The position numbers were made by a program, and so were the translations under genes. Below are positions 32,002 to 61,728 of a stretch of 64,000 nucleotides of DNA, one piece after another; position 1 is the stretch's first letter, and the number at the start of each line of letters is the position of its first letter. This DNA is from Patescibacteria group bacterium (GTDB lineage Bacteria > Patescibacteriota > UBA1384 > XYA2-FULL-43-10 > 1-14-0-10-43-13), in assembly GCA_041649155.1 (NCBI GenBank), contig JBAZNP010000001.1:673183-737182 (forward strand), written 5' to 3'. The notes beneath the pieces were generated by a model. It had not been told where the DNA came from, did no database searches, and saw nothing but the letters and a program-made list of their open reading frames with translations.

Positions 32002-32032
32002 CAAAAAAGCCCCGATTAATCGGGGCTTTTTT
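32002..32032 (+). terminator. Rho-independent terminator after rplL
   Basis: aaaaaagccccgattaatcggggctttttt. Confidence 0.75.
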
Positions 32033-32244
32033 GTATTTTGTGGTATAATTTTAATGTTAATATTTATACCGGAAGGGGGGTGGGCTGATTGGCAAAGCGG
32101 TGGCGCGAAAGACTCAGAAAGAGGCTGCGCGATTTGCTCGGATTGCGTCAGCCAATGTGGGCATGATTTTTTCTCTTTGGGCCGACACTGTCTTTTAGTG
32201 CCGGCTCTTTTCATTCTTATGGTTTTCTAGTATAATATTTTGTT

Positions 32245-40963: not shown

Positions 40964-43501
40964 ATGACAGACGATTATTATAATGGATATGAAAGTTCAA
41001 GTGGATCAAATTGGTGGATTTGGTTGGTTGTTTTTGTTGTCGCAATTATTCTGATTTATATTATTTATCAGAAGATAAGAAAGTCAGTATTACGAAAAAA
41101 CCAAATTAATTTGACTAAAGACTGGACAATGTACAAGGTTCTAGTGCCAAGAGAAAGGCATGCAGGAGAAGATGATCAACGCAAAAATTTTCAGGAAATG
41201 TTGTCAGTTATTGAACCTTTTTATGCAAACTTGAATGCAATGTTTGATAACACTGTCTCAAAAAGACTTCAGGGGCAGGATCATATTTCGCTGGAATTAA
41301 TTGCTAAAGATAATTTAATAAGTTTCTACATCGGTTGCTCCAAGAAAATATCTAATAGTATTTTAAAAAATCTCCATGCCCAATATCCTTATGCAGAAAT
41401 TACTGAAGATAAAAACTATTCAGTTTTTCCAAATAAGCCGTTAAAAATTGATATTGCCAATTTGGGGCTAATAAAAAGATATATTTTTCCCCTAAAAACA
41501 TACAAAACATTGGAAGAGGATCCCCTTAATGCTTTATCTAATTCACTATCGAAGTTGTCCGAGGATGAGCTGGCAGGGGTGCAATTTTTACTAAGGCCAA
41601 CCACAGGTGTCTGGAGAACGGCGGGAGAGAGGGCGGCGTTCAATATTCAGCACGGAAAATCCCGTGTTTCTCATTCAAACTCAGCTACAGTTAGAGCAGG
41701 GGAGGCATTTTTTAATTTTCTAGGTTCCGCGACGCAAACTGCGCAGGGAAAAGGGGAAGGCGAGCACTCCGAGCTATATGATCCAAAGAACCCAATGAAG
41801 TTAACTCCAATGCAGGAAAGTCAAATAAAGCTTTTAGGAGAAAAAGTCTCCAAGCTTGGATTTGAGTGTCAAATAAGAATTGTGAGTGTTGCTCCCACTA
41901 TGGAAAAAGCTCGCCAAAATACTAAAGAAATCGCTTCAATATTCAATCAATTTAATTCTCCTGACTCCAATGGGCTGAATATCAAATATCCAAAAAAGAG
42001 ATCAGAAGACATAGCGAACTATGTTTTCAGGCTTTTCGGTAGGGGACCGAGATTAATTTTAAATACTGAGGAGTTATCTTCCCTATATCATTTACCAAAT
42101 CGTTTTATTGAAACCCCAAATATTGCGTGGCTGTTAGCTAAAAAAGAGCCACCTCCATCAAATTTGCCAAAAGAAGGGACAATAATCGGAAACAGTGTAT
42201 TTAGGGGGAGTGAACTTCCAATTAAAATCAAAGAGTTAGATCGGCTGAGGCACGTTTATATGATAGGTAAAACCGGTGTTGGTAAAACCGTGCTTTTCGA
42301 AAATATGATCCTTCAGGATATAAAAGAAGGAAAGGGTGTCTGCTACCTTGATCCAAATGGAGATGCGGCAGAATACATTTTAAGCCGGATACCAAAAGAA
42401 AGAGCCGACGATGTAATTTACTTCAATCCAGCTGATATAGAGAGGCCAATGGGATTGAATTTGCTTGAATGGAAGACTCCTGAGCAGAGAGATTTCTTAG
42501 TTCAGGAAGCTATTCAAATATTTTATAAACTTTTTGATCCGGGGCAGACTGGAATTGTTGGACCGCAGTTTGAACACTGGATGAGAAATGCAGCCTTAAC
42601 TTTGATGGCTCATCCAGAAGGTGGAACCCTTATTGATATTCCAAGATTGTTTACTGACCCTGATTTTGAAAAGGACCGTGTGAAATATGTGCAAGATCCA
42701 GTAGTGAAAAACTTTTGGGAGAAGCAAATGGCTAAAACTGCTGATTTCCATAAGTCAGAAATGTTAAATTATTTCACTTCAAAATTTGGTCGCTTTATGA
42801 CCAATGATATGATGAGAAATATTTTGGGTCAGACTAAGTCATCATTTGACTTCAGGGATGTGATGGATAACAAGAAAATTCTGATCTGCAATTTATCAAA
42901 AGGATTAATAGGGGAGATCAACGCTTTTCTTCTGGGTATGATAATCGTATCCAAGATAGCGATCGGCGCTTTTTCCCGTCAGGATTTAACAGAAGAAGAG
43001 AGAATTCCCTTTTATCTTTATGTTGATGAATTCCAGAACTTTATTACAGATGTTTTTGCAACTATTCTTTCTGAGTCGAGAAAATACAAATTATCTTTAA
43101 ATATCACAAACCAGTACATTGCGCAGCTGGATGAAAAAATACGTGATGCTGTTATTGGTAATGCCGGCACTTTGGTGTCATTCAGAATTGGTGCGGCGGA
43201 TGCGGACTTTTTGGTTAAAGAATTTGATCCTCTTAAGCCTGACGATATGACCAATATTGATAAGTATAATTTTTATATAAAAATGCTGATTGATGGCGCA
43301 CCGACAAAGCCGTTTAATGGTCAGAGTTTGGCTCCCGATCCCAATGCAAATAGTCAGCTTAGCGCAGCTATAAAAGAATTATCAAGACTGAAATATGGGA
43401 AGCCAAAAGATCAAGTTAATAATGAAATATTAGATAGAACTAAAGTTGACTCTATAGATTTACCAGGGATTAGTTCTACGGATGCAGTGAAAACAGCATA
43501 G
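40964..43501 (+). CDS. TraG/VirD4/TraD-like (type IV coupling protein-like) P-loop ATPase with N-terminal TM and a 400-aa N-terminal domain
   Basis: TM WWIWLVVFVVAIILIYIIY. Walker A IGKTGVGKT (near 42264). Walker B/TraG-D_C-like YLYVDEFQNF. Arginine-finger/Q motif SESRKYKLSLNITNQYIAQL. Ends with IGNAGTLVSFRIGAADADFL. Confidence 0.6.
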   Translation: MTDDYYNGYESSSGSNWWIWLVVFVVAIILIYIIYQKIRKSVLRKNQINLTKDWTMYKVLVPRERHAGEDDQRKNFQEMLSVIEPFYANLNAMFDNTVSKRLQGQDHISLELIAKDNLISFYIGCSKKISNSILKNLHAQYPYAEITEDKNYSVFPNKPLKIDIANLGLIKRYIFPLKTYKTLEEDPLNALSNSLSKLSEDELAGVQFLLRPTTGVWRTAGERAAFNIQHGKSRVSHSNSATVRAGEAFFNFLGSATQTAQGKGEGEHSELYDPKNPMKLTPMQESQIKLLGEKVSKLGFECQIRIVSVAPTMEKARQNTKEIASIFNQFNSPDSNGLNIKYPKKRSEDIANYVFRLFGRGPRLILNTEELSSLYHLPNRFIETPNIAWLLAKKEPPPSNLPKEGTIIGNSVFRGSELPIKIKELDRLRHVYMIGKTGVGKTVLFENMILQDIKEGKGVCYLDPNGDAAEYILSRIPKERADDVIYFNPADIERPMGLNLLEWKTPEQRDFLVQEAIQIFYKLFDPGQTGIVGPQFEHWMRNAALTLMAHPEGGTLIDIPRLFTDPDFEKDRVKYVQDPVVKNFWEKQMAKTADFHKSEMLNYFTSKFGRFMTNDMMRNILGQTKSSFDFRDVMDNKKILICNLSKGLIGEINAFLLGMIIVSKIAIGAFSRQDLTEEERIPFYLYVDEFQNFITDVFATILSESRKYKLSLNITNQYIAQLDEKIRDAVIGNAGTLVSFRIGAADADFLVKEFDPLKPDDMTNIDKYNFYIKMLIDGAPTKPFNGQSLAPDPNANSQLSAAIKELSRLKYGKPKDQVNNEILDRTKVDSIDLPGISSTDAVKTA

Positions 43502-43562
43502 ATAGTTAATAAATGATAGTCTAATGATAGTCTATAGTTAATGGACTTCATAGAAAAAATCG

Positions 43563-43596
43563 CCTGTTATTTCAAAGGCGGTTTTTTAATTAAAAA
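43563..43596 (+). terminator. Rho-independent terminator
   Basis: aaaaaatcgcctgttatttcaaaggcggtttttt. Confidence 0.55.
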
Positions 43597-43670
43597 ATGT
43601 TGACGTCTGATCAATTATGTGGTAGGATAATTGCGTAAAAGGGGATAAAAAAACAAACAATCGGAGCATT

Positions 43671-44177
43671 ATGCCTCAAGAAAAAGAATTACAAGCGATT
43701 AAACACTTACTTGATTCTGCTGAAAATAATATCAGGCAGGTAAAAAGTATACTATTTGCGTCTGAAATTACAAAAAAAGCTCAAGATCTTGAGGAAAGTG
43801 GAGATGGCACAGTGATAGAAGGCGTGTTCGATGGTGAGAATATGATCGGTCCTGATAAGACAAAGTATCCAACACCTCCAAACTATGCGTCAAAATCAAA
43901 ACTTATTCCCGGTGATGTATTAAAATTGACAATACTTCCAGACGGATCATTTCTTTTCAAGCAAATTGGCCCGATAAAAAGAAAGAAGATCATTGGTGAG
44001 CTTGAAGAAATATCAGAAGGAAAGTTTATTGTTAATGCAGAAGGCAGGAAATATAGAGTTCTCCTTGCATCTGTGACATATTTTAAGGCTAATAATGGGG
44101 ACAAATTAACCATTATAGTGCCAGAAAAAGATGAGTCAGAGTGGGCAGCAGTAGAAAATATATTAGAAGGTAAATAA
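43671..44177 (+). CDS. hypothetical protein (168 aa)
   Basis: ORF with RBS ggag. No recognisable motif. Confidence 0.35.
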   Translation: MPQEKELQAIKHLLDSAENNIRQVKSILFASEITKKAQDLEESGDGTVIEGVFDGENMIGPDKTKYPTPPNYASKSKLIPGDVLKLTILPDGSFLFKQIGPIKRKKIIGELEEISEGKFIVNAEGRKYRVLLASVTYFKANNGDKLTIIVPEKDESEWAAVENILEGK

Positions 44178-44178
44178 A

Positions 44179-45213
44179 ATGACAACAATAAAGAATTTTA
44201 GTCCCTACAAAATTGTTAAAAAGGCAATGGAAAGCTTAAAACCAAATGAGGTTAAAGTTATTGCAGGTCGTTTTGGTATTGATGAAGACAGAAAGACTCT
44301 TTCCTCTATTGGTAAAGAATTAAATCTTTCGAGAGAAAGAATTCGTCAAATTGAAAAAGAGGGACTTAAAAAGCTTGCATCTAAAATCGTCGATCGTAAA
44401 AATGAATATCTTGAATTAATCATTCAATCATTTAAGCAAAGCGGTGGAATTGCCAAGCATGAAAATATCGCAAATAAGTTTTTGGAAGAGAGTTTGAAAT
44501 CAAATAAAAATGAATTTAATGCTTTGCATTTGATTTTCTTTCTCATGCCGGAACTTAAGAAGATCGATAAGACTAGAGAACTGGAAGCAAGCTGGGTCAT
44601 TGCTTCTTTATCTAAAGATGAAGTTCTTGGAATTATTAATAATTGGGTTGATCATCTACAAAAAGTGAAAAAACCAACTACGATAGATATTCTCGTAAAA
44701 GAAAATCCTAGTCATAATAAATATGAAATGACCTTTTTGTCCGAATTACCTTACATCAGTAAAAAGCTGGTTAAAACAGAAAATGACTTTATTGGATTAG
44801 CATCTTGGCCTGAAGTAAATCCTAAAAATGTGCGCGATAAAATTTACTATATCCTAAAAAAAGAAGGTAAACCTGTTCACTTTGAAATAATTGCAAAGAA
44901 GATTAATGAAGAAAAATTTTCAAAGAAAAAAGTTGTAAAAGCCACTGTTCACAATGAATTAATTGCTGACGACAGATTTATTCTAGTAGGCAGAGGAATT
45001 TATGCACTTAGAGAATGGGGATACGAGCCCGGAACAGTGAGAGATATTATAAAAAATATTTTAGATATTCATAATCATTCTATGAAGGTTGATGAAATTG
45101 TTTCAGAAGTTCTAAAACAAAGAACTGTTAAGAAAAACACTATTTTGATTAACTTGCAAACAAAGTCGGATTTTAAAAAAGCCGGCAAAGATAGCTACGA
45201 ACTCGCTAAGTAA
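44179..45213 (+). CDS. sigma-70 region-4-like HTH protein with 270-aa C-terminal extension (not a canonical sigma factor)
   Basis: VKVIAGRFGIDEDRKTLSSIGKELNLSRERIRQIEKEGLKKLASKI matches the sigma70 region 4.2 HTH. No region 2. Start overlaps the upstream stop. Confidence 0.5.
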   Translation: MTTIKNFSPYKIVKKAMESLKPNEVKVIAGRFGIDEDRKTLSSIGKELNLSRERIRQIEKEGLKKLASKIVDRKNEYLELIIQSFKQSGGIAKHENIANKFLEESLKSNKNEFNALHLIFFLMPELKKIDKTRELEASWVIASLSKDEVLGIINNWVDHLQKVKKPTTIDILVKENPSHNKYEMTFLSELPYISKKLVKTENDFIGLASWPEVNPKNVRDKIYYILKKEGKPVHFEIIAKKINEEKFSKKKVVKATVHNELIADDRFILVGRGIYALREWGYEPGTVRDIIKNILDIHNHSMKVDEIVSEVLKQRTVKKNTILINLQTKSDFKKAGKDSYELAK

Positions 45214-45306
45214 TTAGCAAAAACATTGAGAATGATGTAAAATAGTGTTAGAAAGTAAACGCGATATAATTTGGCGTTTACTTGTAAAACAAAATGGGGG
45301 AGCTCT

Positions 45307-48300
45307 ATGCAGATTTTTTTATTTCTAATTTTAGTTGTAATTGTGTTAGCCGCAGGCTATCTTATTTTGATTTTAACTAAAATCAAAAATGCAAAAGCCA
45401 AGCAGGAGTGGATGGAGTCGCAAGAATATACGACCTTGCGAATTGATGTACCTAAAAATAATGACAAAAAACCACTTTCTGCCGAACAAATGTTTGCTTC
45501 CATTCATGGAATATATTCTGAAAATTCTCTTTTTCAGAACCATTTGAGTTTTGAAATAGTTGCCCGAGACAAATTCATTCAGTTTTATGTGTATGTGCCG
45601 AAACATATTAAGGACTTTGTTGAGGGCCAAATCTATGCTCAGTATCCAGCAGTCGAAATTCATGAAGTTCCTGATTATACGGAGTCTGTAAAGCCGACAG
45701 ATGGAATTAATTTTGCCGTTTGCGACTTAAACATGACAAAACCGGATGTCTATCCGGTGAAATTTTTTACTGATTTTGAGGTTGACCCATTGAGTGGTAT
45801 TACTTCTGTTATGACTAAGCTTAATCAGGGTGAAGAAGTATGGTTTCAATTGGTCATGAAGCCGGTAGGGGATGAGTGGCAAGAAAAAGGCAATAGCATC
45901 GTTTCGGCAGTCAGGGCCGGACGTAAACCAGGTGGGGTGGGCATTTCTAGCACTATATTAGGTCATTTAAAACAATTTTCAAAGGCTTTTATTCAGCAGG
46001 CGATTCAGCCTGGAGTCGAGACAGAAGAAAGCAAAAGCGAGGTTAAACTTCCAGCTACTGTGGAGGAGGCTCTTAAAGGGATTGAACAAAAAATAGTTAA
46101 ATTAGGGTTTGAGACAAAAATTCGTATTCTTTCAATCTCGAACGATCCCATTTCAGCTAAAGTGAGATGCCAAAGTGTCTCAGCTGCTTTTAAACAATTC
46201 AATACAACAAATTTAAATGGTTTTAAGGTCGGGGAAATAGTCACGAACAATTATGATACATGGAAAGACTTTTCTCAAAGGTCATTTGAAGATGCGGGTA
46301 ATATTCTTAATATCGCCGAGCTTGCTTCTATTTATCATCTTCCTCATGAAACTGTAGAAACACCAAACATTGTTTGGTCGGGCGCAAAAAAGGGTGAACC
46401 ACCGGCAAATTTGCCTTTCAGAGAAAATATATCCGAAGAGGTTTTGACCGTTATTGGCATGACTAATTTTAGAAGCACTTTTCATGAATTCGGTATAAAA
46501 AATGATGACAGAAGAAGGCATATCTATATTGTGGGTAAGTCTGGTACTGGTAAATCAACTCTGATTGAAAATATGGCTGTTGATGATGTAGTTAGGGGCA
46601 AAGGCGTAATAATTGTTGATCCTCATGGTGAATTGGCAGATAAAGTTATATCTTGTGTACCTGATTATCGAATTAATGATGTTATTGTTTTTGATCCTGC
46701 TGATCGAGCATACCCGATTGGTTTTAACCTGTTGGAACACGTAGAGGATGATTTTAAGGGCATGGTTGCTTCTGGATTTGTAGGGATATTTAAAAAAATC
46801 TTCGGTGATTCATGGGGCCCCCGTTTGGAGCATATCTTAAGAAATACTGTTTTGGCATTGCTTGATTTTACAGAATCGACAATGCTTGATATTCCACGAA
46901 TGCTTACGGATAACCGTTTTAGAGATCGTGTAGTTGAAAAAGTTAAGGATCCGGTAATCAGGGACTTCTGGGTAAATGAATTTGCTCAATATGATAGTAA
47001 GTTCAGAACTGAAGCAGTGTCTCCGATTTTGAATAAAGTCGGTCAATTTTTGGCGACTGCTACTATTCGAAATATTGTTGGCCAGTCAAAATCAAAAATC
47101 AATATCAGGGAAATTATGGATCAGAAGAAGATATTGATTGTAAATCTTTCCCGTGGAAAAATTGGCGAAGACAATTCCGCTTTGCTCGGTGCTATGATGA
47201 TTACCAAAATTCAGCTTGCAGCAATGAGTCGTGCTGATGTTACGGCAGATAAGAGAGCAGATTGTTTCTTATATGTTGACGAGTTTCAGAACTTTGCTAC
47301 AGAATCTTTTGCAACCATTTTGTCAGAAGCGAGAAAATATAATCTATGTTTGACGATGGCTAACCAGTACATTGAGCAGATGTCTGAAGAGGTAAGAAGT
47401 GCTGTGTTCGGTAATGCCGGCACTATTGCGGCATTTAGGGTTGGCGGAGCTGACGCTGATTTTCTGGTTAAGGAATTTGAGCCTGTATTTGATGCAAACG
47501 ATATGGTTAATCTTGATAAATATAACATCTATATTAAACTTTTGATTGACGGTATTTCTTCGCCGGCTTTTTCGGCTAAGACTTTACCGCCGGTTCAAAA
47601 ACTTACCGGTAATGTTGAGAAAATTGTCAATCAATCGCACGAAAAATACTCTTCTTTGCGTTCAGTGATAGAAGAAAAGATTATCAATAGGGACAAGGAA
47701 GAAGAAGCTCTTCTTAAAGCTGAAGCTGAAGCTTTTAAACAAGGTGGATTAGAAGCTTTATTAGTAAAAAAAGCTGATCATTCTACGGTTCATGTTGCGT
47801 CGCCGGAAAAGAAATCCGATGCGTTTGGTGAAGCGCCAAAGGAGACGGGGGATAGTCTTAAAAGAGAAAGTGTGCCAGAAAGAGTAACGTCAGAAAATAC
47901 AGAAAATACTGAGGACTATATCAAGAAGGAATCCAAGCCGCGTGTTTTTAGATATCAAAATATAATTGGCGATAAAATCTATAAAGAGCAAACCGCGAGA
48001 GGGGGAGTAAAGTGGTATGTTGGAGAGGAAATCGATCTTGCTAAGCAGAAAGAGCTTGGTGTGGAAGTTTTGAAAGATGGCGAAAAAATGATTGAATTGG
48101 CAAACAAGGTCAAAAAATCTGCCGTTAACGTAAGCCATGAGAGAACGGAGGATCCAAAAGATACAGATTTAAACAAAACCGATTCTACTATTAAAGATCG
48201 CGAAACAGGATCAAAGGAAACTAAAAAAGTAGAAGATGAAAAATCTTTAACACCTTCTAAAGAACCTGATGTGATCATTCAGGAAGAAAAAGGCGAGAAA

Positions 48301-48393
48301 GCAAAAGAAACTACTACCAAAGATAATAAAACCAATATTGTTAATCATGCCGATGCGAAACACCTAACAGAAGGTGAAGAAACAGTTTTGTAA
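45307..48393 (+). CDS. second TraG/VirD4/TraD-like ATPase (paralog) with C-terminal 330-aa charged extension
   Basis: RBS gggggag then ATG. TM IFLFLILVVIVLAAGYLILIL. Walker A VGKSGTGKS (near 46535). FLYVDEFQNF. SEARKYNLCLTMANQYIEQM. FGNAGTIAAFRVGGADADFL. N-domain shares YAQYP(A/Y)(V/A)EI with the first copy. Confidence 0.6.
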   Translation: MQIFLFLILVVIVLAAGYLILILTKIKNAKAKQEWMESQEYTTLRIDVPKNNDKKPLSAEQMFASIHGIYSENSLFQNHLSFEIVARDKFIQFYVYVPKHIKDFVEGQIYAQYPAVEIHEVPDYTESVKPTDGINFAVCDLNMTKPDVYPVKFFTDFEVDPLSGITSVMTKLNQGEEVWFQLVMKPVGDEWQEKGNSIVSAVRAGRKPGGVGISSTILGHLKQFSKAFIQQAIQPGVETEESKSEVKLPATVEEALKGIEQKIVKLGFETKIRILSISNDPISAKVRCQSVSAAFKQFNTTNLNGFKVGEIVTNNYDTWKDFSQRSFEDAGNILNIAELASIYHLPHETVETPNIVWSGAKKGEPPANLPFRENISEEVLTVIGMTNFRSTFHEFGIKNDDRRRHIYIVGKSGTGKSTLIENMAVDDVVRGKGVIIVDPHGELADKVISCVPDYRINDVIVFDPADRAYPIGFNLLEHVEDDFKGMVASGFVGIFKKIFGDSWGPRLEHILRNTVLALLDFTESTMLDIPRMLTDNRFRDRVVEKVKDPVIRDFWVNEFAQYDSKFRTEAVSPILNKVGQFLATATIRNIVGQSKSKINIREIMDQKKILIVNLSRGKIGEDNSALLGAMMITKIQLAAMSRADVTADKRADCFLYVDEFQNFATESFATILSEARKYNLCLTMANQYIEQMSEEVRSAVFGNAGTIAAFRVGGADADFLVKEFEPVFDANDMVNLDKYNIYIKLLIDGISSPAFSAKTLPPVQKLTGNVEKIVNQSHEKYSSLRSVIEEKIINRDKEEEALLKAEAEAFKQGGLEALLVKKADHSTVHVASPEKKSDAFGEAPKETGDSLKRESVPERVTSENTENTEDYIKKESKPRVFRYQNIIGDKIYKEQTARGGVKWYVGEEIDLAKQKELGVEVLKDGEKMIELANKVKKSAVNVSHERTEDPKDTDLNKTDSTIKDRETGSKETKKVEDEKSLTPSKEPDVIIQEEKGEKAKETTTKDNKTNIVNHADAKHLTEGEETVL

Positions 48394-48617
48394 AACTGAG
48401 AGCTTAGATTTTAATTTAAGGGATTTTTTCGATTTTTCGGCAGGGGATAATGAAATCGGGGGAGTGCCTTATTTTTCATTTTATTCTATTTTTTATTTCT
48501 CAACAAAAAGTACCCCCTCTTTCTTTTCTGAAATCATTAAAATAAAATGAAAAATAGAATAAAAAAAAGAGGCTTATTTTATTTTATAATTTTATTATTT
48601 TAATGTAATTATTATTG

Positions 48618-48704
48618 TCATTTCGACCCCGTGCCCGTGAAACGGTTGGAGAAATCTTAATTAAGATGGGTTGAAAGATCCCTCCACGTTGGTTGGGATG
48701 ACAA
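48618..48704. repeat. palindromic mini-element E8
   Basis: tgtcatttcgaccccgtgcccgtgaaacggttgg...gatccctccacgttggttgggatgacaa. The terminal part is the reverse complement of E9. Confidence 0.6.
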
Positions 48705-48847
48705 TAGTGAGTTATATTGACCAAGAGGACTGGTTCGGAGAGCTGAGAAAGGCTTCTAGGGGGCTTTGCATGAGTCTGATATGAGAACTATTATGTGTCC
48801 TCGGTACAATAAATACTGGATTGCGTCGTGGCGATTTTGCATGAATA

Positions 48848-48875
48848 ATGTCGCATAACATGCATTATGCGACAT
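48848..48875. promoter_or_regulatory. dif-like 28-bp site (11-6-11) in the convergent intergenic region
   Basis: ATGTCGCATAA-CATGCA-TTATGCGACAT: perfectly palindromic 11-bp arms whose inner ends match dif/XerCD arms (…CGCATAA / TTATG…). Located exactly where gene orientation switches from + to -. Confidence 0.4.
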
Positions 48876-48993
48876 AAACATTTACTAAATATGACTTTTC
48901 TATCAAATCGGTTGTATTTTAACTAAGTAAACAGGATTATTGAGCACAAAAAACCCTACAATCGATTTTAAGCGATTTTTATTGTTTGAGTGA

Positions 48994-49368
48994 CTATTTC
49001 CCCATCTCGTCTTTAGATTCTATGTTGATTTGTTTCCAAATTTTACCGAATGCGGTGGTTTTTATAATTCCGATGTTGGCAAAGATCCTAATGACGAAAG
49101 CTACTAGTATGGCTAGATATAGATCCAGGTTCAATTTATCTCCAATAAAGGTAATCAGTACTGCGATGATCATATTGAAGGCAAGTCCTGAGAGAAATAT
49201 GGTTGTTGAATATTTTTTTTCGATCGATGCACGAATGGCGCCAAATAGGGAATCGAGAACTCCGACGATTGCAACTGCAGTGTAGCGGGCAAGTTCTGGC
49301 GGAATATTAATTTGAAGAAAAGCCCCCATGATCAATCCTAGTGAAAGACCCAATATTATAAGATACAT
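48994..49368 (-). CDS. small polytopic membrane protein (DUF1290/Sbp-like?)
   Basis: 124 aa with three hydrophobic helices. Family call is tentative. Confidence 0.35.
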   Translation of the reverse strand: MYLIILGLSLGLIMGAFLQINIPPELARYTAVAIVGVLDSLFGAIRASIEKKYSTTIFLSGLAFNMIIAVLITFIGDKLNLDLYLAILVAFVIRIFANIGIIKTTAFGKIWKQINIESKDEMGK

Positions 49369-49551
49369 AATAACTCCTTCGGATAAATTTCTAAATCCTA
49401 ATTTCTAATGTCAAATAAAATAACAAATGCTCAAATGTTTAAAATAATTTATAAATTTGATTTTTAGATTTTTATTTGAAATTTGTAATTTAGGATTTGT
49501 CATTATGCTGATATTCTGGAAAATAAACTAATTTTTCTTTCTCGCGCTCCC

Positions 49552-50463
49552 CTACTTTGCAATAGCAGTAGAAGGGATTTTCTTTTCCTGCCATTTAACC
49601 AGAATTGCCGTGGCAACAAATATTGAGGAGTAAGTACCAAAGAATATACCAATGATCAAAGTTAGTACGAAATGTCTTATGGAAGTTCCGCCTAGGACAA
49701 ATAATGAGATTAATACAATAATCACTGTTAAGGAAGTATTTATTGATCGCGCAAGTGTTTGATTAACACTTTCTTCTGCTATTATTGTAACGCCTTTATG
49801 CGGGTTTTTAATAAAGTTTTCACGCAATCGGTCATAAACGACGATTGTATCATGAACGGAAAAACCCATTATAGTAAGAAGCGCAGTAATAAATAAAGCA
49901 TCTACTTCCACCCATGGAACAAAATGGGATATCACAGCAATCGCACCGGTTGTTATTAATAGGTCGTGAATTATGGCAACAACCGCTGATATACCGAATT
50001 TCCATGATGAAAGTGGTTTGGGTATCTTGCGAAAAGCAAAAGCAATATAAATTATGATTGCGATTGAAGCTAAAATCACAGCAATTATTGATTTAGTTGT
50101 TAGATCCTTGCTAATAGAAGGCCCGACGCTATCGTATAAACTTTCTTTGTAATCCCCTCCTAATGCGTTGGTGAGGTTTTCTGTTAATTTTGTGTGATCT
50201 TCATTTGAAAGGACTGGCAAGCGCAGGTTGATCTGATTATTGGCACCTTCTTTTATTTGATAGCCTGAGCTGAATTGTTGCTTAACTGTATTCTCAACAA
50301 TTGTAAGCTTGTTGGAATTATTTGAGTGCGCTTCAATAACCGTACCTCCTTTGTAGTCAATTCCGAGTCTTAAACCGAATACGGCGATTGCTACTATGGA
50401 CAAGACCATGAGAGATCCTGAAAATACAAACCAATAGTTTGAATTTTTAATAATTTTAAACAT
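49552..50463 (-). CDS. secF: protein-export membrane protein SecF
   Basis: MFKIIKNSNYWFVFSGSLMVLSIVAIAVFGL... has SecF topology with conserved C-terminal TM bundle. Overlaps the secD stop by 8 nt. Confidence 0.85.
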   Translation of the reverse strand: MFKIIKNSNYWFVFSGSLMVLSIVAIAVFGLRLGIDYKGGTVIEAHSNNSNKLTIVENTVKQQFSSGYQIKEGANNQINLRLPVLSNEDHTKLTENLTNALGGDYKESLYDSVGPSISKDLTTKSIIAVILASIAIIIYIAFAFRKIPKPLSSWKFGISAVVAIIHDLLITTGAIAVISHFVPWVEVDALFITALLTIMGFSVHDTIVVYDRLRENFIKNPHKGVTIIAEESVNQTLARSINTSLTVIIVLISLFVLGGTSIRHFVLTLIIGIFFGTYSSIFVATAILVKWQEKKIPSTAIAK

Positions 50464-51751
50464 GAATAAGTCCTTTTGCTCTGCTGCCGGCAATTAATAG
50501 TAGGATGGTTCTTGTTACGGTTATAGCCGTAAACAAACTGATAGCAATACCAATGCCCAGTGTTAAGGCAAATCCCCGAACTGGTCCTGATCCAGCAGTG
50601 AAATAGAGAATTAAACAAGTGATGATCGAAGATAGGTTTGAGTCTTTAACGGAACTCCATGCTCTCTTGAAACCATCAATTATTGATAAATTTAATGTTT
50701 TACCTAGCGCCATTTCCTCTCTCATTCGTTCAAAGATTAGAATATTGGCATCAATTGCCATTCCGATAGAAAGGACGAAACCGGCGATACCAGCTAAAGA
50801 TAGTGTAACTGGAATTAATTTATATAGAGCAAAACTGATTATCGAGTAAAAAACCAAAGCTATCATCGCAATCAGTCCTGAGGTTTTGTAATAAGAAACC
50901 ATAAATATTCCAACTAAGAGAAGGCCGACTATGCCGGCGACAGCACTTTTTTGCAGTGAATCTTTGCCGAGTGTAGCTCCAACGTTCTGTTGCCCGATTA
51001 AAGTGGCTGGAACTGGCAGCATGCCCTCATTGAGGCGCTGAGCCAGCTCTTGTGCTTCTTTAATATTGTTTGATCCAGTTATAATGGCTTCGCCATTGGT
51101 TAATTCTGTTTGAACAGTTGGCGCAGTAACTATTTTATTATCTAAAACGACAGCTATTTGTTTTTGGACATTCCTTTTTGTTAATTCGGCAAATTTTTCC
51201 TTGCCGACATTATCAAATTTAATTGTTACGACTGGTTCTGACTGTAAATTACTCTGGCTGCTGTTTTGGAAAGTGTATTCGGCTGATTTTAATTGCCGTC
51301 CATTTAGATCGGTCTTTTTCCAGTAACCAGGATATGTGAAGCTGGGATCATAATAGTCATTTAGCTGCACCCCGTCTTCTGCTGTTCCTGTTTCCATAAA
51401 TACGAGTTCGTATGTTGCTCCGATCTTATCAACAGCCTGATTTATGTCTTTGACGCCTGGCAGTTCAACAATAATCTTACTAGTGCCGGAGGTTTGAATG
51501 GTTGGTTCAGCTACGCCAAGCTCATCTATTCTATTCCTAAAAACGTTTGCAAGGTTATTTAGATCCTTTATTTTGTCGGTTGATGCCGATAAATCGGCCT
51601 GATAAACAAGTTCGGTTCCGCCAACTAGATCAAGACCCAAAACAGCCTTAATTTTTTGCCCGGCAATCGGACTTTTAGGCACGTCAATTAGTACACCGAA
51701 AGTGACAATGACTATAATCACAGCAAACATTATCCAAAGATTTCTTTTCAT
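50456..51751 (-). CDS. secD: protein-export membrane protein SecD
   Basis: N-terminal TM, large periplasmic domain, C-terminal six-TM SecD/SecF core (LAGIAGFVLSIGMAIDANILIFERMREE). Confidence 0.85.
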   Translation of the reverse strand: MKRNLWIMFAVIIVIVTFGVLIDVPKSPIAGQKIKAVLGLDLVGGTELVYQADLSASTDKIKDLNNLANVFRNRIDELGVAEPTIQTSGTSKIIVELPGVKDINQAVDKIGATYELVFMETGTAEDGVQLNDYYDPSFTYPGYWKKTDLNGRQLKSAEYTFQNSSQSNLQSEPVVTIKFDNVGKEKFAELTKRNVQKQIAVVLDNKIVTAPTVQTELTNGEAIITGSNNIKEAQELAQRLNEGMLPVPATLIGQQNVGATLGKDSLQKSAVAGIVGLLLVGIFMVSYYKTSGLIAMIALVFYSIISFALYKLIPVTLSLAGIAGFVLSIGMAIDANILIFERMREEMALGKTLNLSIIDGFKRAWSSVKDSNLSSIITCLILYFTAGSGPVRGFALTLGIGIAISLFTAITVTRTILLLIAGSRAKGLIHV

Positions 51752-51804
51752 AAATTTCTCCGTTTCTATCTAATATGATAGTTCATTTGACCACTGTCAG
51801 TCAA

Positions 51805-52434
51805 TCATATCATTGGATAAATGGCGATTTCCTCTTCTTTTAAGAGCTTAGGAAAAATATCGCTTTCAAGCATGGAGAAACCGTTCGGTAAGTGATTGAA
51901 AATTTCTGATTCTAAGATATAAGCTCCTTCTAGTGCTGACAAATTATTTGTGGCTATTGTGGCGGTATTTTTTTGTTTTCTATGAAAAGAGATCAATTTT
52001 TCCAAGTTAATTTTTAAGACTTCATCTGTATTAACTACTATAAAAGTTTTGTTAAAGGTCTTTTTGAGTTGTTTTATTGCTCCTCCTGAGCCTTCGCCTT
52101 CAATATATTTTATCTCTAATCCGAGGTCTTTTCCGTCGCCTAGTTTTTGAATTATTTTATCTCCCAAATATCCAATTGCGACATGCACCACAGTGCAGCC
52201 ATATTTTTTAAGGAGCTTTAAATTTTCTTTTGCTGTGGGTATTAACTTGAGAGCGTCCTTACCTCCCAGCAATAAAATAGCATTTCTGGTTTCACCTGAG
52301 TTTAGGGCTGTAGTGGTGAGTGTCTCAATCGCATGTGAGCGATTTCTGATATTCATTCCGTCTATCGTACCATCAATTTCTTTTAGCAGGTTTTTTTTAA
52401 TTGAGATCGTTATTCTTTCGCGTTCCATGCTCAC
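51805..52434 (-). CDS. ribbon-helix-helix domain fused to a degenerate sugar-nucleotidyltransferase-like domain
   Basis: N-terminus ERITISIKKNLLKEIDGTIDGMNIRNRSHAIETL (CopG/Arc-like). Followed by NAILLLGGKDALKLIP...IGYLGDKIIQKLGDGKDLGLEIKYIEGEGSGGAIKQL...FIVVNTDEV resembling a GlmU/RmlA-type NTP-transferase with a degenerate G-loop. Confidence 0.4.
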   Translation of the reverse strand: MSMERERITISIKKNLLKEIDGTIDGMNIRNRSHAIETLTTTALNSGETRNAILLLGGKDALKLIPTAKENLKLLKKYGCTVVHVAIGYLGDKIIQKLGDGKDLGLEIKYIEGEGSGGAIKQLKKTFNKTFIVVNTDEVLKINLEKLISFHRKQKNTATIATNNLSALEGAYILESEIFNHLPNGFSMLESDIFPKLLKEEEIAIYPMI

Positions 52435-52539
52435 CTTTCTTTAATGTTGATAAAATAATTTTGTTATTAATACTAAAATTACCGTACCATATACTTTTTT
52501 TGAGTGCAAATATTAATATGAATTTGTATGATTAAGGCG

Positions 52540-53505
52540 TTAAATTGACTTTAAATTATCGAGAACTGATTCCATGTCTTTGGGAATTGGTGCCTCAAAT
52601 GTTGAGTGTTTGACATCTCCTGGTAATGAAATCTCCAGAGTTCTGGCATGCAATAATTGCCTTTCAATTCCCATTTTTTGGGATAGGTTGTCACAATGTT
52701 TGTTGCCATAAAATTGATCGCCTAAAACAGGAATTCCAATCAGACTCGCCTGTACTCTGATCTGATGCGTTCTTCCTGTTTTGATATTAAATTCAACCAG
52801 TGAAATTCTATTATGTTGGCTATCTTCAAAACATTGTAATACTTTGTAATCAGATATTGCTTCTCTCCCCTTCTCTTTTCCAATATCTGCTATCATTTTT
52901 CTATTTTTCGGGTGTCTTCCTAGATAATTAATTAATCTTCCTTCGGATTTTTTGGGCCAGCCACAACAAAGAGCAATATAAATCTTTTTAACAGTGCGGT
53001 TTTGTATCTGCTTTGACAATGAGTGCATTGTCCTTTCATTTTTTGCGATGATTATTACTCCTGATGTATCTTTATCTAAACGATGAACTAAGCCAGGTCT
53101 TTGCTCGGAGACAATATTGCCTTTTTCATATACGGCCTCCCGTATTTTAGGGAAATAATCTAAAAGCGCATTCACTAGCGTTCCACTGCTATTTCCGGCA
53201 GCAGGATGGACTACAATTCCTGGTTGTTTGTTTACGACAATAACGTTCTCATCTTCGTAAATAATATCCAGGTTAATTTTTTCAGGAACAACCTCCTTTT
53301 TTAATCTTGGAGCAATATTTATTTCGATTAAATCTAGTGAGTTAATTTTATAGCTGGGTTTAGTGCTATTTTTGTTTACAGTTACCATATCTTTCTTGAT
53401 CAAACTAGAAAGTTGAGACCTAGAAAATTCCGGCAATTTCGCAACTAAAAAAGAATCTAGACGCTTCCCTACTTCATTTGATTTTGCTTCAATTTTTTTT
53501 ATCAT
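52540..53505 (-). CDS. rluD: RluA/RluD-family 23S rRNA pseudouridine synthase
   Basis: S4 domain N-terminus, catalytic HRLDKDTSGVIIIAKN, C-terminal GRTHQIRVQ. Confidence 0.9.
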   Translation of the reverse strand: MIKKIEAKSNEVGKRLDSFLVAKLPEFSRSQLSSLIKKDMVTVNKNSTKPSYKINSLDLIEINIAPRLKKEVVPEKINLDIIYEDENVIVVNKQPGIVVHPAAGNSSGTLVNALLDYFPKIREAVYEKGNIVSEQRPGLVHRLDKDTSGVIIIAKNERTMHSLSKQIQNRTVKKIYIALCCGWPKKSEGRLINYLGRHPKNRKMIADIGKEKGREAISDYKVLQCFEDSQHNRISLVEFNIKTGRTHQIRVQASLIGIPVLGDQFYGNKHCDNLSQKMGIERQLLHARTLEISLPGDVKHSTFEAPIPKDMESVLDNLKSI

Positions 53506-54353
53506 TTTAAAAAACCGGATATGCTAGTATCGCTGTTAACCCTATATCGATTAAGCTCAAATAAATTCTCAAAAGTTGTTAACTTGCTTTTTGTGGTTAC
53601 GGCATATTTATAGCCAGTCTCTTTGACGATTTGAGCCGTTTCTTCGGAAAATTTCCCCGAAGGATAGCAGAAAGAAATTACATTGTTGCCGATAAGCGAT
53701 TCAAGAGCTTTCTTGCTGCTTGAAATTTCTTCCTGTGCTCTACTGGAGGACGATGTGCTTAAATCCGGATGTGATAAAGTGTGAGAGCCTATTTCTATTC
53801 CATTTGAATTTATCTCTTTTATCTCTTTTTCGCTTAAGTAATCATTCTTGCCAATATCATTTACAATAACGAAAACCGTGCCGATCATTCCTCTTTTTTT
53901 AAGCTCGGGATAGGCATTTTGATAAAAGTTTTCATATCCATCGTCAAAAGTTAGTATTATTGGTTTTGTTGGAGTATTACCAGTACTTAAATCATTAAAA
54001 GTAATTGTTGTATATCCTTCGTTTTTAATTAGATCAAGTTGCTTGGCAAATTTTTCCGGCGAAACTGATAAATTAGTTCCTATTTTGTCATTTGGATCAC
54101 TAAAATCACGAATGTGATGATACATTAAAACTGGCATCGACAGGTTTTGTAGATTTGCTTCATTTGTTGATGTGGATGTGGTGTTATCTTCAGTCTTATC
54201 TTCAATTGAAGATATTTTCACAATCTCCGAGTCGTTATTATTCTGTGTGGACGGAGAAATAACTTTTTCATTTTTAATGAAAATAATTCCGCAAAAAATT
54301 AATGCAGAAGCAACTGTTAATATTATAATTTTTTTTGATTTGCGTTTTTTCAT
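53502..54353 (-). CDS. polysaccharide deacetylase (NodB/PgdA family), membrane-anchored
   Basis: TM IIILTVASALIFCGIIFI. NodB motifs LTFDDGYENFY and HTLSHPDLS. Confidence 0.85.
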   Translation of the reverse strand: MKKRKSKKIIILTVASALIFCGIIFIKNEKVISPSTQNNNDSEIVKISSIEDKTEDNTTSTSTNEANLQNLSMPVLMYHHIRDFSDPNDKIGTNLSVSPEKFAKQLDLIKNEGYTTITFNDLSTGNTPTKPIILTFDDGYENFYQNAYPELKKRGMIGTVFVIVNDIGKNDYLSEKEIKEINSNGIEIGSHTLSHPDLSTSSSSRAQEEISSSKKALESLIGNNVISFCYPSGKFSEETAQIVKETGYKYAVTTKSKLTTFENLFELNRYRVNSDTSISGFLK

Positions 54354-55483
54354 TACTCTATTAAATCATTTGTTTTTTGTTCTAGAATGTTTTGACTTTT
54401 AATTTTATCCACAACTGAAGTTAATTGTCTATTTCTAGTATTTGCTACTACATCGAATTGTTTGCCAGCTGAAGATATTCGATCACCCAAAGTATCAACT
54501 GCAGCACAATATTTTTGATATTCAGTATCAAATTTTTGAATTAAGCCGATAATGTGGTGAAGATTTTCCTGATATCGGAAGTTTGTGTATGCCTGCTTGA
54601 CCATTCGCAAAATAGCAGTGAAACTAAATGGTCCTGCTAAAATTACTTTTTTTTGCATCGCTTCTTCCCAAATATCATTCATTTTATCGTAAATGAAGCT
54701 GAAAATCATCTCATTTGGAATAAAAAGTATGACAAAATCAACTGTTTTTTCTTCAGGGTTAATATAATCTCTGGTGCAAACCTGTTTAATCTTATTCTTT
54801 ACGTCCTGTTTAAAATCTCTCAAATAACGCTCTTTTGTGGTTTTGTCATTTGATTCAACATATTTTACTAATGAAGAATAAGGAAACTTAACATCAATGT
54901 TGATTTTAGTTTGATCTGGTAAGAAGATCGTAAAATCCGGCCTAGTGTCTCGTGTTTGCTGAGTTTCATTCTTTGAGTAGTCTTGTCCAATTACTAAACC
55001 TGCCATTTGCAGTAAATTTTCAGCTACCTGTTCGCCAAATGCTCCTCGCATTTGGTTGTTGGAAAGAAGTTCCTTTAGCTTATCAGTACTTAGCTTTAAG
55101 TCGCCAGTTATTTCTTTATAGCTTTTCAATTCGTTTTGTAGTGCTGAAAAAGATTTTACCCTGTCTTCATCGCTTTTAGTAATTCGTTCTTCGTTTTTTC
55201 TTATGTCTTTTCTTATCTCGTTTATTAGCTCTCCGATTGCAGATTTCTTGCCGTCTAAATCTGTTTTGATCTCATTTTTCTGTGAATTCAGAACTTCTTT
55301 CGCCAGTGTTAAAAATTGTTCTGTGTTATTTTTTAAGGCGTCGTTTGAAATTCTGGCGATCTTGTCTTCCAAATTCATGTCATCAACATTTTTTGTATTC
55401 TTTTTCTTAATTAAAATATTGGCGGCAATTGTTCCAATTATGGCTGCCAAAAATACTGAGATAATAATAAGTATGTTGTTCAT
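54353..55483 (-). CDS. rmuC: DNA recombination protein RmuC
   Basis: N-terminal TM, long coiled-coil, C-terminal RmuC core (DFVILFIPNE...FTAILRMVKQ). Confidence 0.85.
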   Translation of the reverse strand: MNNILIIISVFLAAIIGTIAANILIKKKNTKNVDDMNLEDKIARISNDALKNNTEQFLTLAKEVLNSQKNEIKTDLDGKKSAIGELINEIRKDIRKNEERITKSDEDRVKSFSALQNELKSYKEITGDLKLSTDKLKELLSNNQMRGAFGEQVAENLLQMAGLVIGQDYSKNETQQTRDTRPDFTIFLPDQTKINIDVKFPYSSLVKYVESNDKTTKERYLRDFKQDVKNKIKQVCTRDYINPEEKTVDFVILFIPNEMIFSFIYDKMNDIWEEAMQKKVILAGPFSFTAILRMVKQAYTNFRYQENLHHIIGLIQKFDTEYQKYCAAVDTLGDRISSAGKQFDVVANTRNRQLTSVVDKIKSQNILEQKTNDLIE

Positions 55484-55533
55484 TTCGATTCCCTCTTTTA
55501 TTAATTAGGCGCGACTGTTCAATACTCTCCTGT

Positions 55534-55559
55534 GTCATCCCGACCAACGTGGAGGGATC
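55534..55559. repeat. short palindromic element E9
   Basis: gtcatcccgaccaacgtggagggatc is the reverse complement of the E8 terminal half. Lies about 50 nt upstream of the rmuC start on the - strand, followed by the GC palindrome cctgcctgccggcaggcagg, which also occurs at 40905-40930. Confidence 0.55.
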
Positions 55560-55847
55560 TGTTAACAGTTAATTCTTTTTATTTGTAAGATTTCCCTGCC
55601 TGCCGGCAGGCAGGTCCGCCCCTCAGACAAGGCCGAGGAGTCGAAATGACAGCGGCGAGTGAGCATTGCAATTAAATATAGCATTATTGTAGCATAAATA
55701 TTTAACCGAACAAATGCTGAACATAACAACACAGATTTCTTACACAGATCGAACACTGATACAGGGTGGTCAATAGGACGTTTTACTAATAAAATCGCTG
55801 GCAATATGCCAGTGATTTTATTAGTCTTTCTATTCCCTTTTCTTTCT

Positions 55848-58800
55848 CTACAACTTCACAAATCCGAATATCCTCTGTAGTGATTCCAGTATTACTTCAA
55901 GTGGTCCTTTGTCTTTTTGCGCTGTTGGAGTGGTGAAGGTAAAGTCTCCTGAGACTGCGGTGTTGCCATTGGCATCTTTTGAGGTTGTTCTAAAGTGGTA
56001 GGCTGTGTCAGGAGCTAAATCTTCCAGTGTTACGGAGTGACCCATATTCAGAGATTCTTCTTCTCTTGTCTTTTGTCCATAGTTTCCGCTTGTGCCAAAT
56101 TCAACCTGACTGCTTGCTCCTCTGTTTGTATCCCATGATACAGTTAATTGTACTTTATCTTTAGCTACCAACACTGATTCTTCTATCACCTTGCTATTTG
56201 TAACTTCCAGTGTTGAGTCGTCTCCGACTATCGGCTTTCTCACTACAGGGAGCCCGTCATTTATGCGGTATCTAAAGGTTGTGTTTAGACTCAAGCCTTT
56301 GTCTATGAAGTAGCCATTACTATCAGTGTTAATGCTAGAGTAACTGCTATCATCATTGCTCTTTTCTACCTTTGATCCTTTTGGAAAGGTCAGAACATTT
56401 TGATAGAATCCCTTTTCTTTAAACGATACATCTGTAACTAGAAGATTGTTGGAAAATCCCTGAAGCGACTCCAATGAGTTAGTATCTGAAGACGTGGTGT
56501 CAGCCGCTTTTGTGTTGGTTGTTGTTAATACCCTGAACAGCCCTTGTAATGTATCAATGATGATCTTGAGAATTGATTTGTCTTCCGGTGCAGGTTTCGT
56601 TGTAAATGAAATATCTTCACTTACAAGTTCTTTACCATAAATGTCCTTGCTTGTTACTTTTGCATGATAAGTGGTCGCTGGTTTTAGATCCTTAAGAAGA
56701 ACATTGTGTCCTTGGTTTAAGCTTTCATCTAATTCTGTTTTGTTTCCATAACTGGTAGAGGCTCCATATTCAACTAAGCTTGTTGCTGGATAGACAGTTT
56801 TCCATGAAACAGTAACGGTGGTTTTGTCCTTAGCTACTACAGAAGAAGCAGTGCCTTTTGGATCAGAGATGACATCTGTTTCAATTGCTTTTCCTGTCGT
56901 ATTAACTTTAACTACTCCTGTTTCTGAGCTATTGCCGGCATTGTCAACTGCTTTCACTTTGTAGACATAATCTCCGGAAGTAACATCTGCGTCTAATAGA
57001 TAATATGGCTGGCTCTCATTTCCAGTGTAATTAGTATTAGTATTTTCTTTCTTCGGATTGATATCCCCTATCTTGGCATCTCCCTTAAAGACCTCGTAAT
57101 TTTTAATTAAAGAAGTGTCATCATTTGATCCAGCAAAGTCTAGATAAATGGCATAAACAGAAGCAGCAGTATTGGAAACATTGAATACCCTAAGATCAGA
57201 TGGAATAGTTGGGGCAATGCTATCAACTATTACGGAAAATGTAGAAGTAGCCTTTTCGTTGCCGGCATTATCTAAAGCACGAGCTACAATTGTGTGATTG
57301 CCTTCTGTATAATCTTTCCATTCATAATTCCAGGAATTAGAACTTAGATCTTCGCTCTGAGAACTTAGGGTAGTAGTATTCCAGTCACCATTATCTATTT
57401 GGATTTCTACTTTATTTAGTCCGACTATTGGTTTGGAGGCAGTACCAGAAAGAGCGATTGATTTAGAATTAACGTATTGGCCGGAAGTTAAGTTATCTAA
57501 TGTAATCACAGGACTGGTTTGATCGATCAATACACTCCCCTCAAGAGAGAAGCTGCTTATATGACCAACATTGTCAACTGCCTTAATCCTAATGTAGTAT
57601 GTGCCGACAGAAGCAAAGGTTTTTGATATTGAGTTAGTAGTTACAGTTGTGCCATTTACTATGTCAGTGCCACCAGAGATTGATCCAATGTAGACTAAGT
57701 ATTCCTTAATTCCTGAACCATTACCGTCAGAAGCGGCATTCCAGTTAAAGCTAACCGTTAAATTATTAGTAGGATTGGCAGAAGCTGCAGGAGTAATACT
57801 GCTCAAATCAGGAGTGATAGTGTCGACTTTAACCTCTCTTGACCCAGGAGACAATGAATTAGAATTTCCGGCGTTATCAACGGCATAATATGTTAGAATA
57901 TTATTTCCTTCAGGGGCAGTAATAGCAGAAGAGTAATCAGCCCAGTCCCCGTTCCCCCATCTATACTTGATACCGGATACACCACTGCTATCGACATCCG
58001 TAGCTGACAAAGTCACAGTCGGAGCGGAAGTGTAATATCCGTTTGTATCAGGAGATGCGGGGTTGATGGATGAGGATGATGAAGGATTAACAGTATCCAA
58101 TTTAATCTCTCGATTAAAGGTGGATGAGACATTTCCTGCTATATCGACACCATAGTAGTAAACAGTATTTACTCTTTCTGGTGCAGTTAAAGCGGTAGAG
58201 TATGTGCTAAAGTCGCCACTACTACCCCATCTGTAATATATCGAACCGGCACCACTCAAAGCATCTGTCTCTGAGAATGTAACAGAAGGAGCTGTTCCTT
58301 TGTAGTATCCGTTAATACCATTTACCTCAGAAGGAGAAACAGAGATATCTACAGCAGACGGAGCAGCAGTGTCTACTTTGTATTCTGTAATTGAAGGATC
58401 ATCAAGACCAGAATTATTGGCTTCATCTGTAGCATATGCATAAAGAGAATTCGTTCCTTCTGGAGCAGTAACTGGAGTAGAATAAGTCAAGTAATCTCCA
58501 GAGCTTCCCCATCTGTAATATATTCCTGTCACAACCGGCCCGATTGACTCGGCCGATAAAGTAATGGTCGGAGCAGTTGTCTTAAACCAATTATTTGATC
58601 CGTTCGGAGATACGGGATTAGAAACAGAAATTACAATCGGTGCTGTATAAACAAAATTCCAACCGTTGTTATTGCCGCTATCAATAACATTACTATAATT
58701 TCCAGGAGTGATTATTCCTCCTGTAATGTTTGAATTAGCAACTTGAATATATTGATCAGACGTAAATGAAGCAGGGATAGCAATTGTATATTGATCTGAC

Positions 58801-61472: not shown

Positions 61473-61562
61473 CCTGTGTCCCCCGCCAATTAAATAGTTA
61501 TAACAACATTATAATACACAAAAAGCAAAACACAAAATTTTCTATAGGATTCATGCGATCGA

Positions 61563-61662
61563 CGTCATTCCGACTCCTTGGCTTTGTCCAAGGATGGAGG
61601 AATCTTTTAATTAATTAAAACTACTATAAAAAGATCCCTTCATTTCAGTCGGGATGACAAAG
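61563..61662. repeat. palindromic mini-element E10 (two halves)
   Basis: cgtcattccgactccttggctttgtccaaggatggaggaatc ... gatcccttcatttcagtcgggatgacaaag. Lies 90 nt upstream of the giant gene start on the - strand. Confidence 0.6.
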
Positions 61663-61728
61663 TGAGAAGTCGGGCTAGCAGAAGATGGTAAAAATTGATT
61701 AAACGCGTAAGTCTCACAATTAAAATAA

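Follow-up and report, generated by a model that had tools for sequence, protein, structure and literature searches.

A dif-type candidate Xer recombination site between convergent gene blocks of a Patescibacteria genome

Background

Sites for the resolution of chromosome dimers are already known for most cultured phyla. Classical dif sites are located near the switch in strand skew; the tie to fork convergence is looser in systems that are independent of FtsK, and the dif site of Sulfolobus lies outside the fork-fusion zones. Xer recombination is also exploited by mobile DNA, as in the gonococcal genetic island, an IMEX with type IV secretion genes situated beside dif. Among the published sequences that served as references in the current analysis (Carnoy and Roten 2009, PMC2731167) are the dif sites of Escherichia coli, GGTGCGCATAA-TGTATA-TTATGTTAAAT, and Mesorhizobium loti, AAGTCGCATAA-GATAGA-TTATGGAACTT, and the published sites are found 0.3-100 kb from the extreme of the raw skew (PMC2731167). 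In the Thermococcales dif agrees with the bacterial consensus at just 14-18 of 28 positions, and GC skew cannot place the terminus precisely (PMC2958812). A search of the literature found no paper describing a dimer-resolution site for the Patescibacteria/CPR, and a dif-type site is apparently undescribed for these organisms. Here we present a 28-bp palindrome from a Patescibacteria genome that is probably such a site and compare it with the systems outlined above.

The spacer and its flanking genes

The window, by which we mean the whole 64,000-nt stretch of DNA that was analysed, encodes an ordinary housekeeping set of a reduced genome, comprising tRNA synthetases, ribosomal proteins, type IV pilins, SecDF, RmuC and others. 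A preliminary description of this DNA had pointed to a switch of the coding strand at a 600-bp gap. This organization is borne out by the long non-overlapping ORFs: the ~39 of them in 1-48393 are all on the plus strand, the 9 in 48994-64000 are all on the minus strand, and the gap measures exactly 600 bp from the stop of the plus-strand gene 45271-48393 to the stop of the minus-strand gene 48994-49368. The features of this region are as follows:

45271-48393, plus strand: left flanking gene, coding for a 1040-aa membrane-anchored type IV coupling-protein-like ATPase (DUF8128, TrwB/TraG-D_C; Pfam, NCBIfam)
48394-48993: spacer between the convergent genes, 600 bp, 33.3% GC
48470-48605, plus strand: A/T-rich imperfect inverted repeats (19-20 nt, 95%) and a CCTCTTTCTTTT/AAAAAAAAGAGG stem, then a T-rich tail
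48608-48712: 'E8', a long hairpin of REP-like type (folding energy -37.9 kcal/mol, z -4.45)
48848-48875: 28-bp dif-type site ATGTCGCATAA-CATGCA-TTATGCGACAT, with perfect inverted 11-nt arms and a 6-nt spacer
48859-48864: central hexamer CATGCA (TGCATG on the minus strand), the presumed strand-exchange region
48994-49368, minus strand: right flanking gene, coding for a 124-aa DUF1290 membrane protein (Pfam), which opens the minus-strand block and is followed by secF, secD and others

The spacer had been described as AT-rich, and it is mildly so, with a GC content of 33.3% against 37.3% for the window, but not as strongly as had been implied. Five independent assemblies of this organism carry the locus without a single base difference. 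No tRNAs were detected, and searches against Rfam recovered nothing meaningful either in the whole window (at gathering scores) or in the gap (E up to 10).

The 1040-aa ATPase belongs to the FtsK superfamily. Its identification as FtsK itself was rejected, because type IV coupling proteins match best in Pfam, NCBIfam and the PDB, the best PDB matches being DotL and TrwB. It is one of a pair of membrane-anchored type IV coupling-protein-like ATPases (DUF8128/TrwB/TraG-D_C) that occupies 40964-48393, with a protein combining sigma-70 region 4 and a HARE-HTH encoded between the two. Beyond the window, loci with such an ATPase pair are L016, L021, L022, L026, L027, L029, L056, L070, L075, L080 and L082, and an orthologue of the 1040-aa ATPase adjoins the site in 13 Patescibacteria loci from several classes. 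On the other side of the spacer, the DUF1290 gene has the same neighbors in relatives.

The spacer also harbors repeats distinct from the palindrome. Element E8, which had been noted in the gap, is indeed a strongly folding hairpin belonging to an interspersed repeat family. The family consists of short intergenic hairpin repeats (GTCATTCC...GGAATC / GATCCC...GGGATGAC) with copies at 2356-2426, 3946-3983, 5137-5214, 16499-16542, 33182-33267, 40497-40544, 48608-48712, 55524-55651 and 61617-61662, and E8 is unrelated to the dif-type site. A 22-bp inverted repeat also reported from the gap did not hold up, as its quoted second arm, aaaaaatagaataaaatgaaaa, is absent from the window; what the sequence does contain is a pair of imperfect inverted repeats that overlap each other, 19-20 nt long and 95% complementary, in low-complexity A/T sequence (48470-48498 / 48538-48566). 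The fold of the region 48470-48605 is marginal (z -1.9), and this region is possibly the terminator of the plus-strand gene. Elsewhere in the window, a 45-nt direct repeat (GTTRTGGCAAATATCGTCGATCGTGAGTTTTCAGCATAA...) is present in three intergenic copies (13326-13370, 13954-13998 and 22752-22796), two of which bracket a PaaX/Cas2-like gene at 13389-13952.

A palindrome unique in the window, with the architecture of a dif site

The 28-bp palindrome was recovered at 48848-48875 with the 11-6-11 architecture that had been reported for it, and its arms are perfect. It is flanked by AAACATTT and TATTCATG. With three mismatches tolerated it is the sole copy in the window, and there is no further copy in the 27 kb of the contig beyond the window, which dispels the earlier concern that it might be a generic repeat. 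Having one copy in 91 kb, it is likewise ruled out as a REP/MITE-like interspersed repeat. The matches listed from a genome scan (see below) show one site per contig, with a single assembly present twice.

Six loci of the window hold a perfect inverted repeat with arms of 11 nt and a loop of 3-10 nt, versus 0.3 per shuffled window. The five others, with arms of at least 11 nt (11230-11257, 19630-19660, 25078-25105, 29518-29548 and 32002-32033), carry A/T tracts and have the appearance of terminator hairpins; those at 11230 and 32002 are flanked by an A-run and a T-run and resemble bidirectional terminators. The 28-bp palindrome too is located between convergent genes and is predicted to fold with -14 to -17 kcal/mol on both strands (z ~ -3). 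This would be in keeping with a role solely as an RNA hairpin, i.e. a bidirectional terminator of the convergent transcripts, or alternatively as an operator for a dimeric regulator. We consider either role extremely improbable, given that a T-run after the stem is absent on both strands, that the palindrome is missing from the output of a terminator scan and that it is the other perfect palindromes of the window that have the A/T tracts. Moreover, this palindrome has kept its sequence across bacterial and archaeal phyla, which terminator stems do not, and the convergent 3' ends of two genes are an improbable location for an operator.

The inner-arm bases of XerC/XerD dif sites had been recognized in the palindrome, and comparison with the published sites agrees with this, yielding identities of 19/28 to the dif of E. 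coli, 20/28 to that of P. aeruginosa and 21/28 to those of M. loti and H. influenzae. As the window is AT-rich and its runner-up 28-mers reach up to 18/28 against E. coli dif, the identity to this particular site is by itself weak evidence. The sequence GTCGCATAA corresponds to the inner XerC arm of M. loti dif, and both arms of the window site are of that type. The sequence of the E. coli XerD arm, TTATGTTAAAT, occurs unaltered at 9383-9410 in the ftsW-rplU spacer, without a partner arm; ~0.2 such 11-mers are expected by chance, and this copy is probably fortuitous.

Conservation of the core across bacterial and archaeal genomes

A scan for GTCGCATAA-N6-TTATGCGAC across one genome per species (596 Gb) recovered this core in at least 119 genome stretches, versus ~9 expected according to our own estimate for 18 fixed bases; the palindrome is more than a chance occurrence. 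Counts by taxon refer to the matches listed, and are indicative rather than a census. The matches listed include ~24 loci from Patescibacteria (Saccharibacteria, Berkelbacteria, Moraniibacteriota, Minisyncoccota and Colwellbacteria), ~54 from Poseidoniales and related archaea, 10 from MAGs labeled 'uncultured Bdellovibrionales' and ~30 from scattered other taxa. One of the complete Patescibacteria genomes with the core is CP064994.1, where the site lies near 641 kb of 1,048,819 bp. In the 'Bdellovibrionales' MAGs (L011, L015, L049, L069, L094, L105, L107, L115, L120, L121) the gene families flanking the site are those seen in Minisyncoccota and Moraniibacteriota, and a contig of a 'Verrucomicrobiales' MAG (L041) displays the synteny of Poseidoniales; the taxonomic labels or the binning of these MAGs look doubtful.

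Across the 119 matches listed and the source locus (L001), 98 of the 120 sites are intergenic, and the flanking genes are convergent at 61 of the ~99 sites where both flanks could be called and divergent at 9. The gene order ATPase, site, DUF1290, SecF, SecD is common to 13 Patescibacteria loci, including Saccharibacteria, Berkelbacteria and others. When 200 bp around the site were aligned for 10 of the syntenic Patescibacteria spacers, mean column identity was 51% and the flanks proved essentially unalignable, and all of the ~21 invariant columns fell in the core: within the spacer, constraint is confined to the ~28 bp of the core. The consensus of 35 oriented Patescibacteria-type sites is ATGTCGCATAA-TGTAT[C/G]-TTATGCGACAT (with the center TGTATS), from which the hexamer of the window, TGCATG, shows a single-base departure. 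The orientation of the hexamer relative to the ATPase gene is also kept in the syntenic loci, where it reads CATGCA, CATACA, GATACA or CTATCA.

In the Poseidoniales / Marine Group II (~54 loci within L007-L124) the core takes the form TTGTCGCATAA-N6-TTATGCGAC and is found once per contig in a conserved archaeal neighborhood, often 3-30 bp off the 3' end of a gene for a ~110-aa protein. This core is likely to be the XerA-type dif of that uncultured group.

Association of the core with Xer-family recombinases

Clustering by family of the genes within 4 kb of the sites recovered tyrosine recombinase genes (~270-390 aa) positioned 0-400 bp from the core in 15 loci of other phyla; on two viral contigs such a gene lies at a like distance. 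The recombinase-adjacent loci include representatives of Bacteroidia, Chloroflexi, Thermacetogenium, Alkalibaculum, Omnitrophota, Nanohaloarchaea and Thermoplasmata. The encoded proteins possess a SAM-like N-terminal domain, and three of them score above the NCBIfam cut-offs, one for XerC (457 vs 371 bits) and two for XerA (274 and 223 vs 220 bits). It was a profile built from these site-adjacent recombinases that detected the two viral ones, among seven core-bearing viral contigs (IMG/VR contigs L127-L133, with L127 and L132 also encoding an Xer-like recombinase). In Alkalibaculum the core is surrounded by a cluster of two or three Xer-like recombinase genes (L042 2614-6800 and L071 853-3057), an arrangement that recalls the 'recombinase in trio' elements. 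The presence of Xer genes beside the core in such module-type loci implies that the core is a sequence that Xer-family enzymes keep alongside. Taken with the occurrence of the core in many genomes and the conserved island that it forms in the syntenic spacers, this upholds the original suggestion of a dif-like Xer site.

The recombinase profile matched nothing in the window or L125, nor in the loci of Patescibacteria and Poseidoniales, and no xer or integrase gene was found in the 91 kb, amounting to ~11% of the ~0.8-Mb genome, that were covered by Pfam, by the recombinase profile (window and L125) and by Pfam labels (L134 and L138). In the Patescibacteria and Poseidoniales the core is thus found alone, at a fixed chromosomal position, like a classical dif.

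These contextual data also bear on the possibility that the palindrome is an attachment or recombination site of a mobile element, for example with the coupling-protein cluster as an island at an Xer site, or with the site as part of a recombinase-site module. Two T4CP-like ATPase genes do lie directly to the left of the site, and the core beside Xer-like genes in scattered phyla, the three-recombinase cluster of Alkalibaculum (L042) and the seven viral contigs imply that mobile uses of the core exist. In the window and in L134 and L138, however, no second site reaches 16 of the 22 arm bases within -48/+42 kb, and matches at 15/22 arm bases number 3 against 2.2 expected. No integrase is located nearby, and the GC content and skew of the cluster are those of the rest of the plus-strand block. 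Further, Saccharibacteria, Berkelbacteria and other Patescibacteria have the order ATPase-site-DUF1290-SecF-SecD in common, as would fit a core locus of the chromosome rather than a recent insertion. On these grounds a mobile-element origin appears very unlikely for the window site.

Gene orientation, strand composition and the replication terminus

The gap had further been proposed to be the replication terminus, at which the two replichores would meet, with the palindrome as a dif at that terminus. To the right, the source contig was followed to the window-equivalent position 90.8 kb (L125/L134/L138). The minus-strand block extends for at least 42 kb right of the gap, with four exceptions, and holds secDF, ftsZ, ftsA, eno, clpB, hisS, lexA and others; it faces 48 kb of plus-strand genes. 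The raw GC skew drops from ~+0.19 before the gap to ~-0.02/-0.05 after it, and its cumulative curve peaks in the window at 49-52 kb. Both observations speak for a terminus, as does the support for the dif-type nature of the site, and given the raw-skew distances of published sites the window site would pass as a dif by that measure. The change in raw skew is, nevertheless, carried by codon position 1, which tracks gene orientation, the coding-strand skew at this position being +0.43 left of the gap and +0.41 right of it. The difference in skew between the two blocks climbs from 0.02 at codon position 1 through 0.10 at position 2 to 0.42 at position 3, as a mutational bias would, and this argues against a terminus. 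Since GC3 skew is confounded by amino-acid composition, the analysis was based on four-fold degenerate sites, for which the coding-strand values are:

Left block, plus-strand genes: GC4 +0.071 ± 0.025, AT4 -0.163
Right block, minus-strand genes in the window: GC4 -0.323 ± 0.038, AT4 -0.012
Right block, minus-strand genes in the extension: GC4 -0.357 ± 0.049, AT4 -0.038
Right block, the four plus-strand genes: GC4 +0.063 ± 0.089, AT4 -0.246

The four plus-strand genes inside the right block thus have the same four-fold composition as the plus-strand block on the left. Decomposition of the four-fold skew gives a codon term of ~-0.14 and a strand term of ~+0.21, with equal sign on either side of the site. 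In other words, four-fold skew tracks the strand and not the side, implying that the mutational strand bias is unreversed within -48/+42 kb of the site; a terminus needs strand terms of opposite sign on its two sides, and the observed pattern argues against one. The difference between the blocks also holds within expression classes. Taking averages of gene subsets, four-fold skew is ~-0.2 to -0.3 for ribosomal protein genes on the plus strand and ~-0.6 for ftsZ, trx and S21 on the minus strand, while for enzymes of low expression it is ~+0.08 on the plus versus ~-0.19 on the minus strand. Two surface proteins with matches to the Pfam Big_13 (bacterial Ig-like) domain, encoded on opposite strands, show +0.14 versus -0.41. 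Intergenic skew on the right side is based on 961 nt only and does not decide the matter.

The same asymmetry is seen throughout the syntenic relatives, all of which have a four-fold skew near 0 on the ATPase side and of -0.1 to -0.34 on the SecDF side; its presence in every one of them indicates that it is old and was not left behind by a recent inversion. Skew in the 8-kb loci is mostly noisy and is confounded by codon bias where gene orientation flips, so that two loci alone are informative: in L049 and L100, which are non-syntenic and have constant gene orientation across the site, four-fold skew flips in the sense expected of a terminus (+0.33 to -0.17 and +0.24 to -0.20, respectively). 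These flips, which favor the terminus proposal, imply that the relation of the site to the terminus may differ among lineages.

Thus, although gene convergence and a raw skew peak are present at the gap, the dif-type site of the window is apart from the skew-defined terminus, at least within -48/+42 kb, and the proposal that the replichores meet in this gap is an unlikely one. With published sites found 0.3-100 kb from the skew extreme, the lack of coincidence with a terminus lowers the probability that the palindrome is a dif without excluding it. As the link between dif and the forks is looser in FtsK-independent systems, the skew result is far more damaging to the terminus proposal than to the assignment of the site as a dif. 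The opposite four-fold skew of the minus-strand block, together with the resemblance of the plus-strand genes inside it to the plus-strand block, also means that transcription and replication appear to run in opposite directions in one of the two long blocks.

A proposed role for the site and its implications

The architectural, phyletic and contextual observations taken together suggest that the palindrome is a dif-type core site for an Xer-family tyrosine recombinase, and that it is most likely where chromosome dimers of this Patescibacteria (CPR) genome are resolved, a reading in which we place considerable though not full confidence. From the sequence and its comparisons we infer both the action of a host Xer protein on the site and dimer resolution as the reaction. 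Under the proposed mechanism, a recombinase encoded elsewhere in the genome would bind each of the identical 11-bp arms, and on a dimeric chromosome, which has the site twice, the two sites would then synapse. Strand exchanges, made in pairs where the 6-bp center (TGCATG) meets the arms, would convert the dimer to two monomers. The identity of the arms implies that a single recombinase specificity suffices, as in the XerA, XerH or XerS systems, and the direction of the site would be set only by the asymmetric central hexamer.

The consensus ATGTCGCATAA-TGTATS-TTATGCGACAT would offer a one-line marker for the dimer-resolution site in fragmentary genomes of the CPR (and the Poseidoniales). It would also hint at a single-specificity Xer system and provide a defined DNA substrate for biochemistry. 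More tentatively, and with doubts that outweigh our confidence, we raise the possibility that the dif-type site of many Patescibacteria is a conserved point at which gene orientation converges but replication forks do not. One long block would then be head-on to replication, and the chromosome might be organized around a site for dimer resolution or segregation, beside a conserved coupling-protein-like ATPase of the FtsK superfamily, rather than around the point where the forks meet. Were this true, and the G-rich strand the leading one, the head-on block would span at least 42 kb and include ftsZ, ftsA, secDF, eno and clpB. A block of essential genes of at least 42 kb that bears the composition of the opposite strand is a puzzle; should gene orientation and neutral-site skew disagree throughout the genome, this would bear on the layout of replication and transcription in reduced genomes.

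Comparison with known dif and Xer systems

The window site resembles the bacterial XerC/XerD dif sites in its 11-6-11 layout, in its inner arms CGCATAA / TTATG and in being intergenic, low in GC and present once per contig; the Patescibacteria consensus, furthermore, has a TGTAT-like center comparable to the TGTATA of E. coli dif. Unlike those sites, it is a perfect palindrome with XerC-type sequence in both arms and no XerD-type arm (TTATGTTAAAT), and it shows no switch of neutral-site skew. In having near-palindromic arms that imply one recombinase specificity it is closer to the single-recombinase systems, namely XerA/dif (PMC2958812), XerH/difH and XerS/difSL (PMC5357621). With the XerA systems there is the further likeness that the core is abundant in the Poseidoniales archaea and that some of the recombinases adjacent to it score above the cut-off of the NCBIfam XerA model. 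In archaea, dif and xerA do not lie next to each other (PMC2958812), and the same is apparently true of the window site and its recombinase gene. It is distinguished from XerH and XerS, the genes for which adjoin their own sites, in that no recombinase gene is present within 48 kb to the left or 42 kb to the right; difSL is also longer, at 31 bp, than the 28-mer of the window.

With the gonococcal genetic island and IMEX elements the locus shares the placement of type IV coupling-protein-like ATPase genes directly beside a dif-type site. It differs from an IMEX in that there is no second flanking site and no compositional break, and in that the gene order is kept across Patescibacteria classes.
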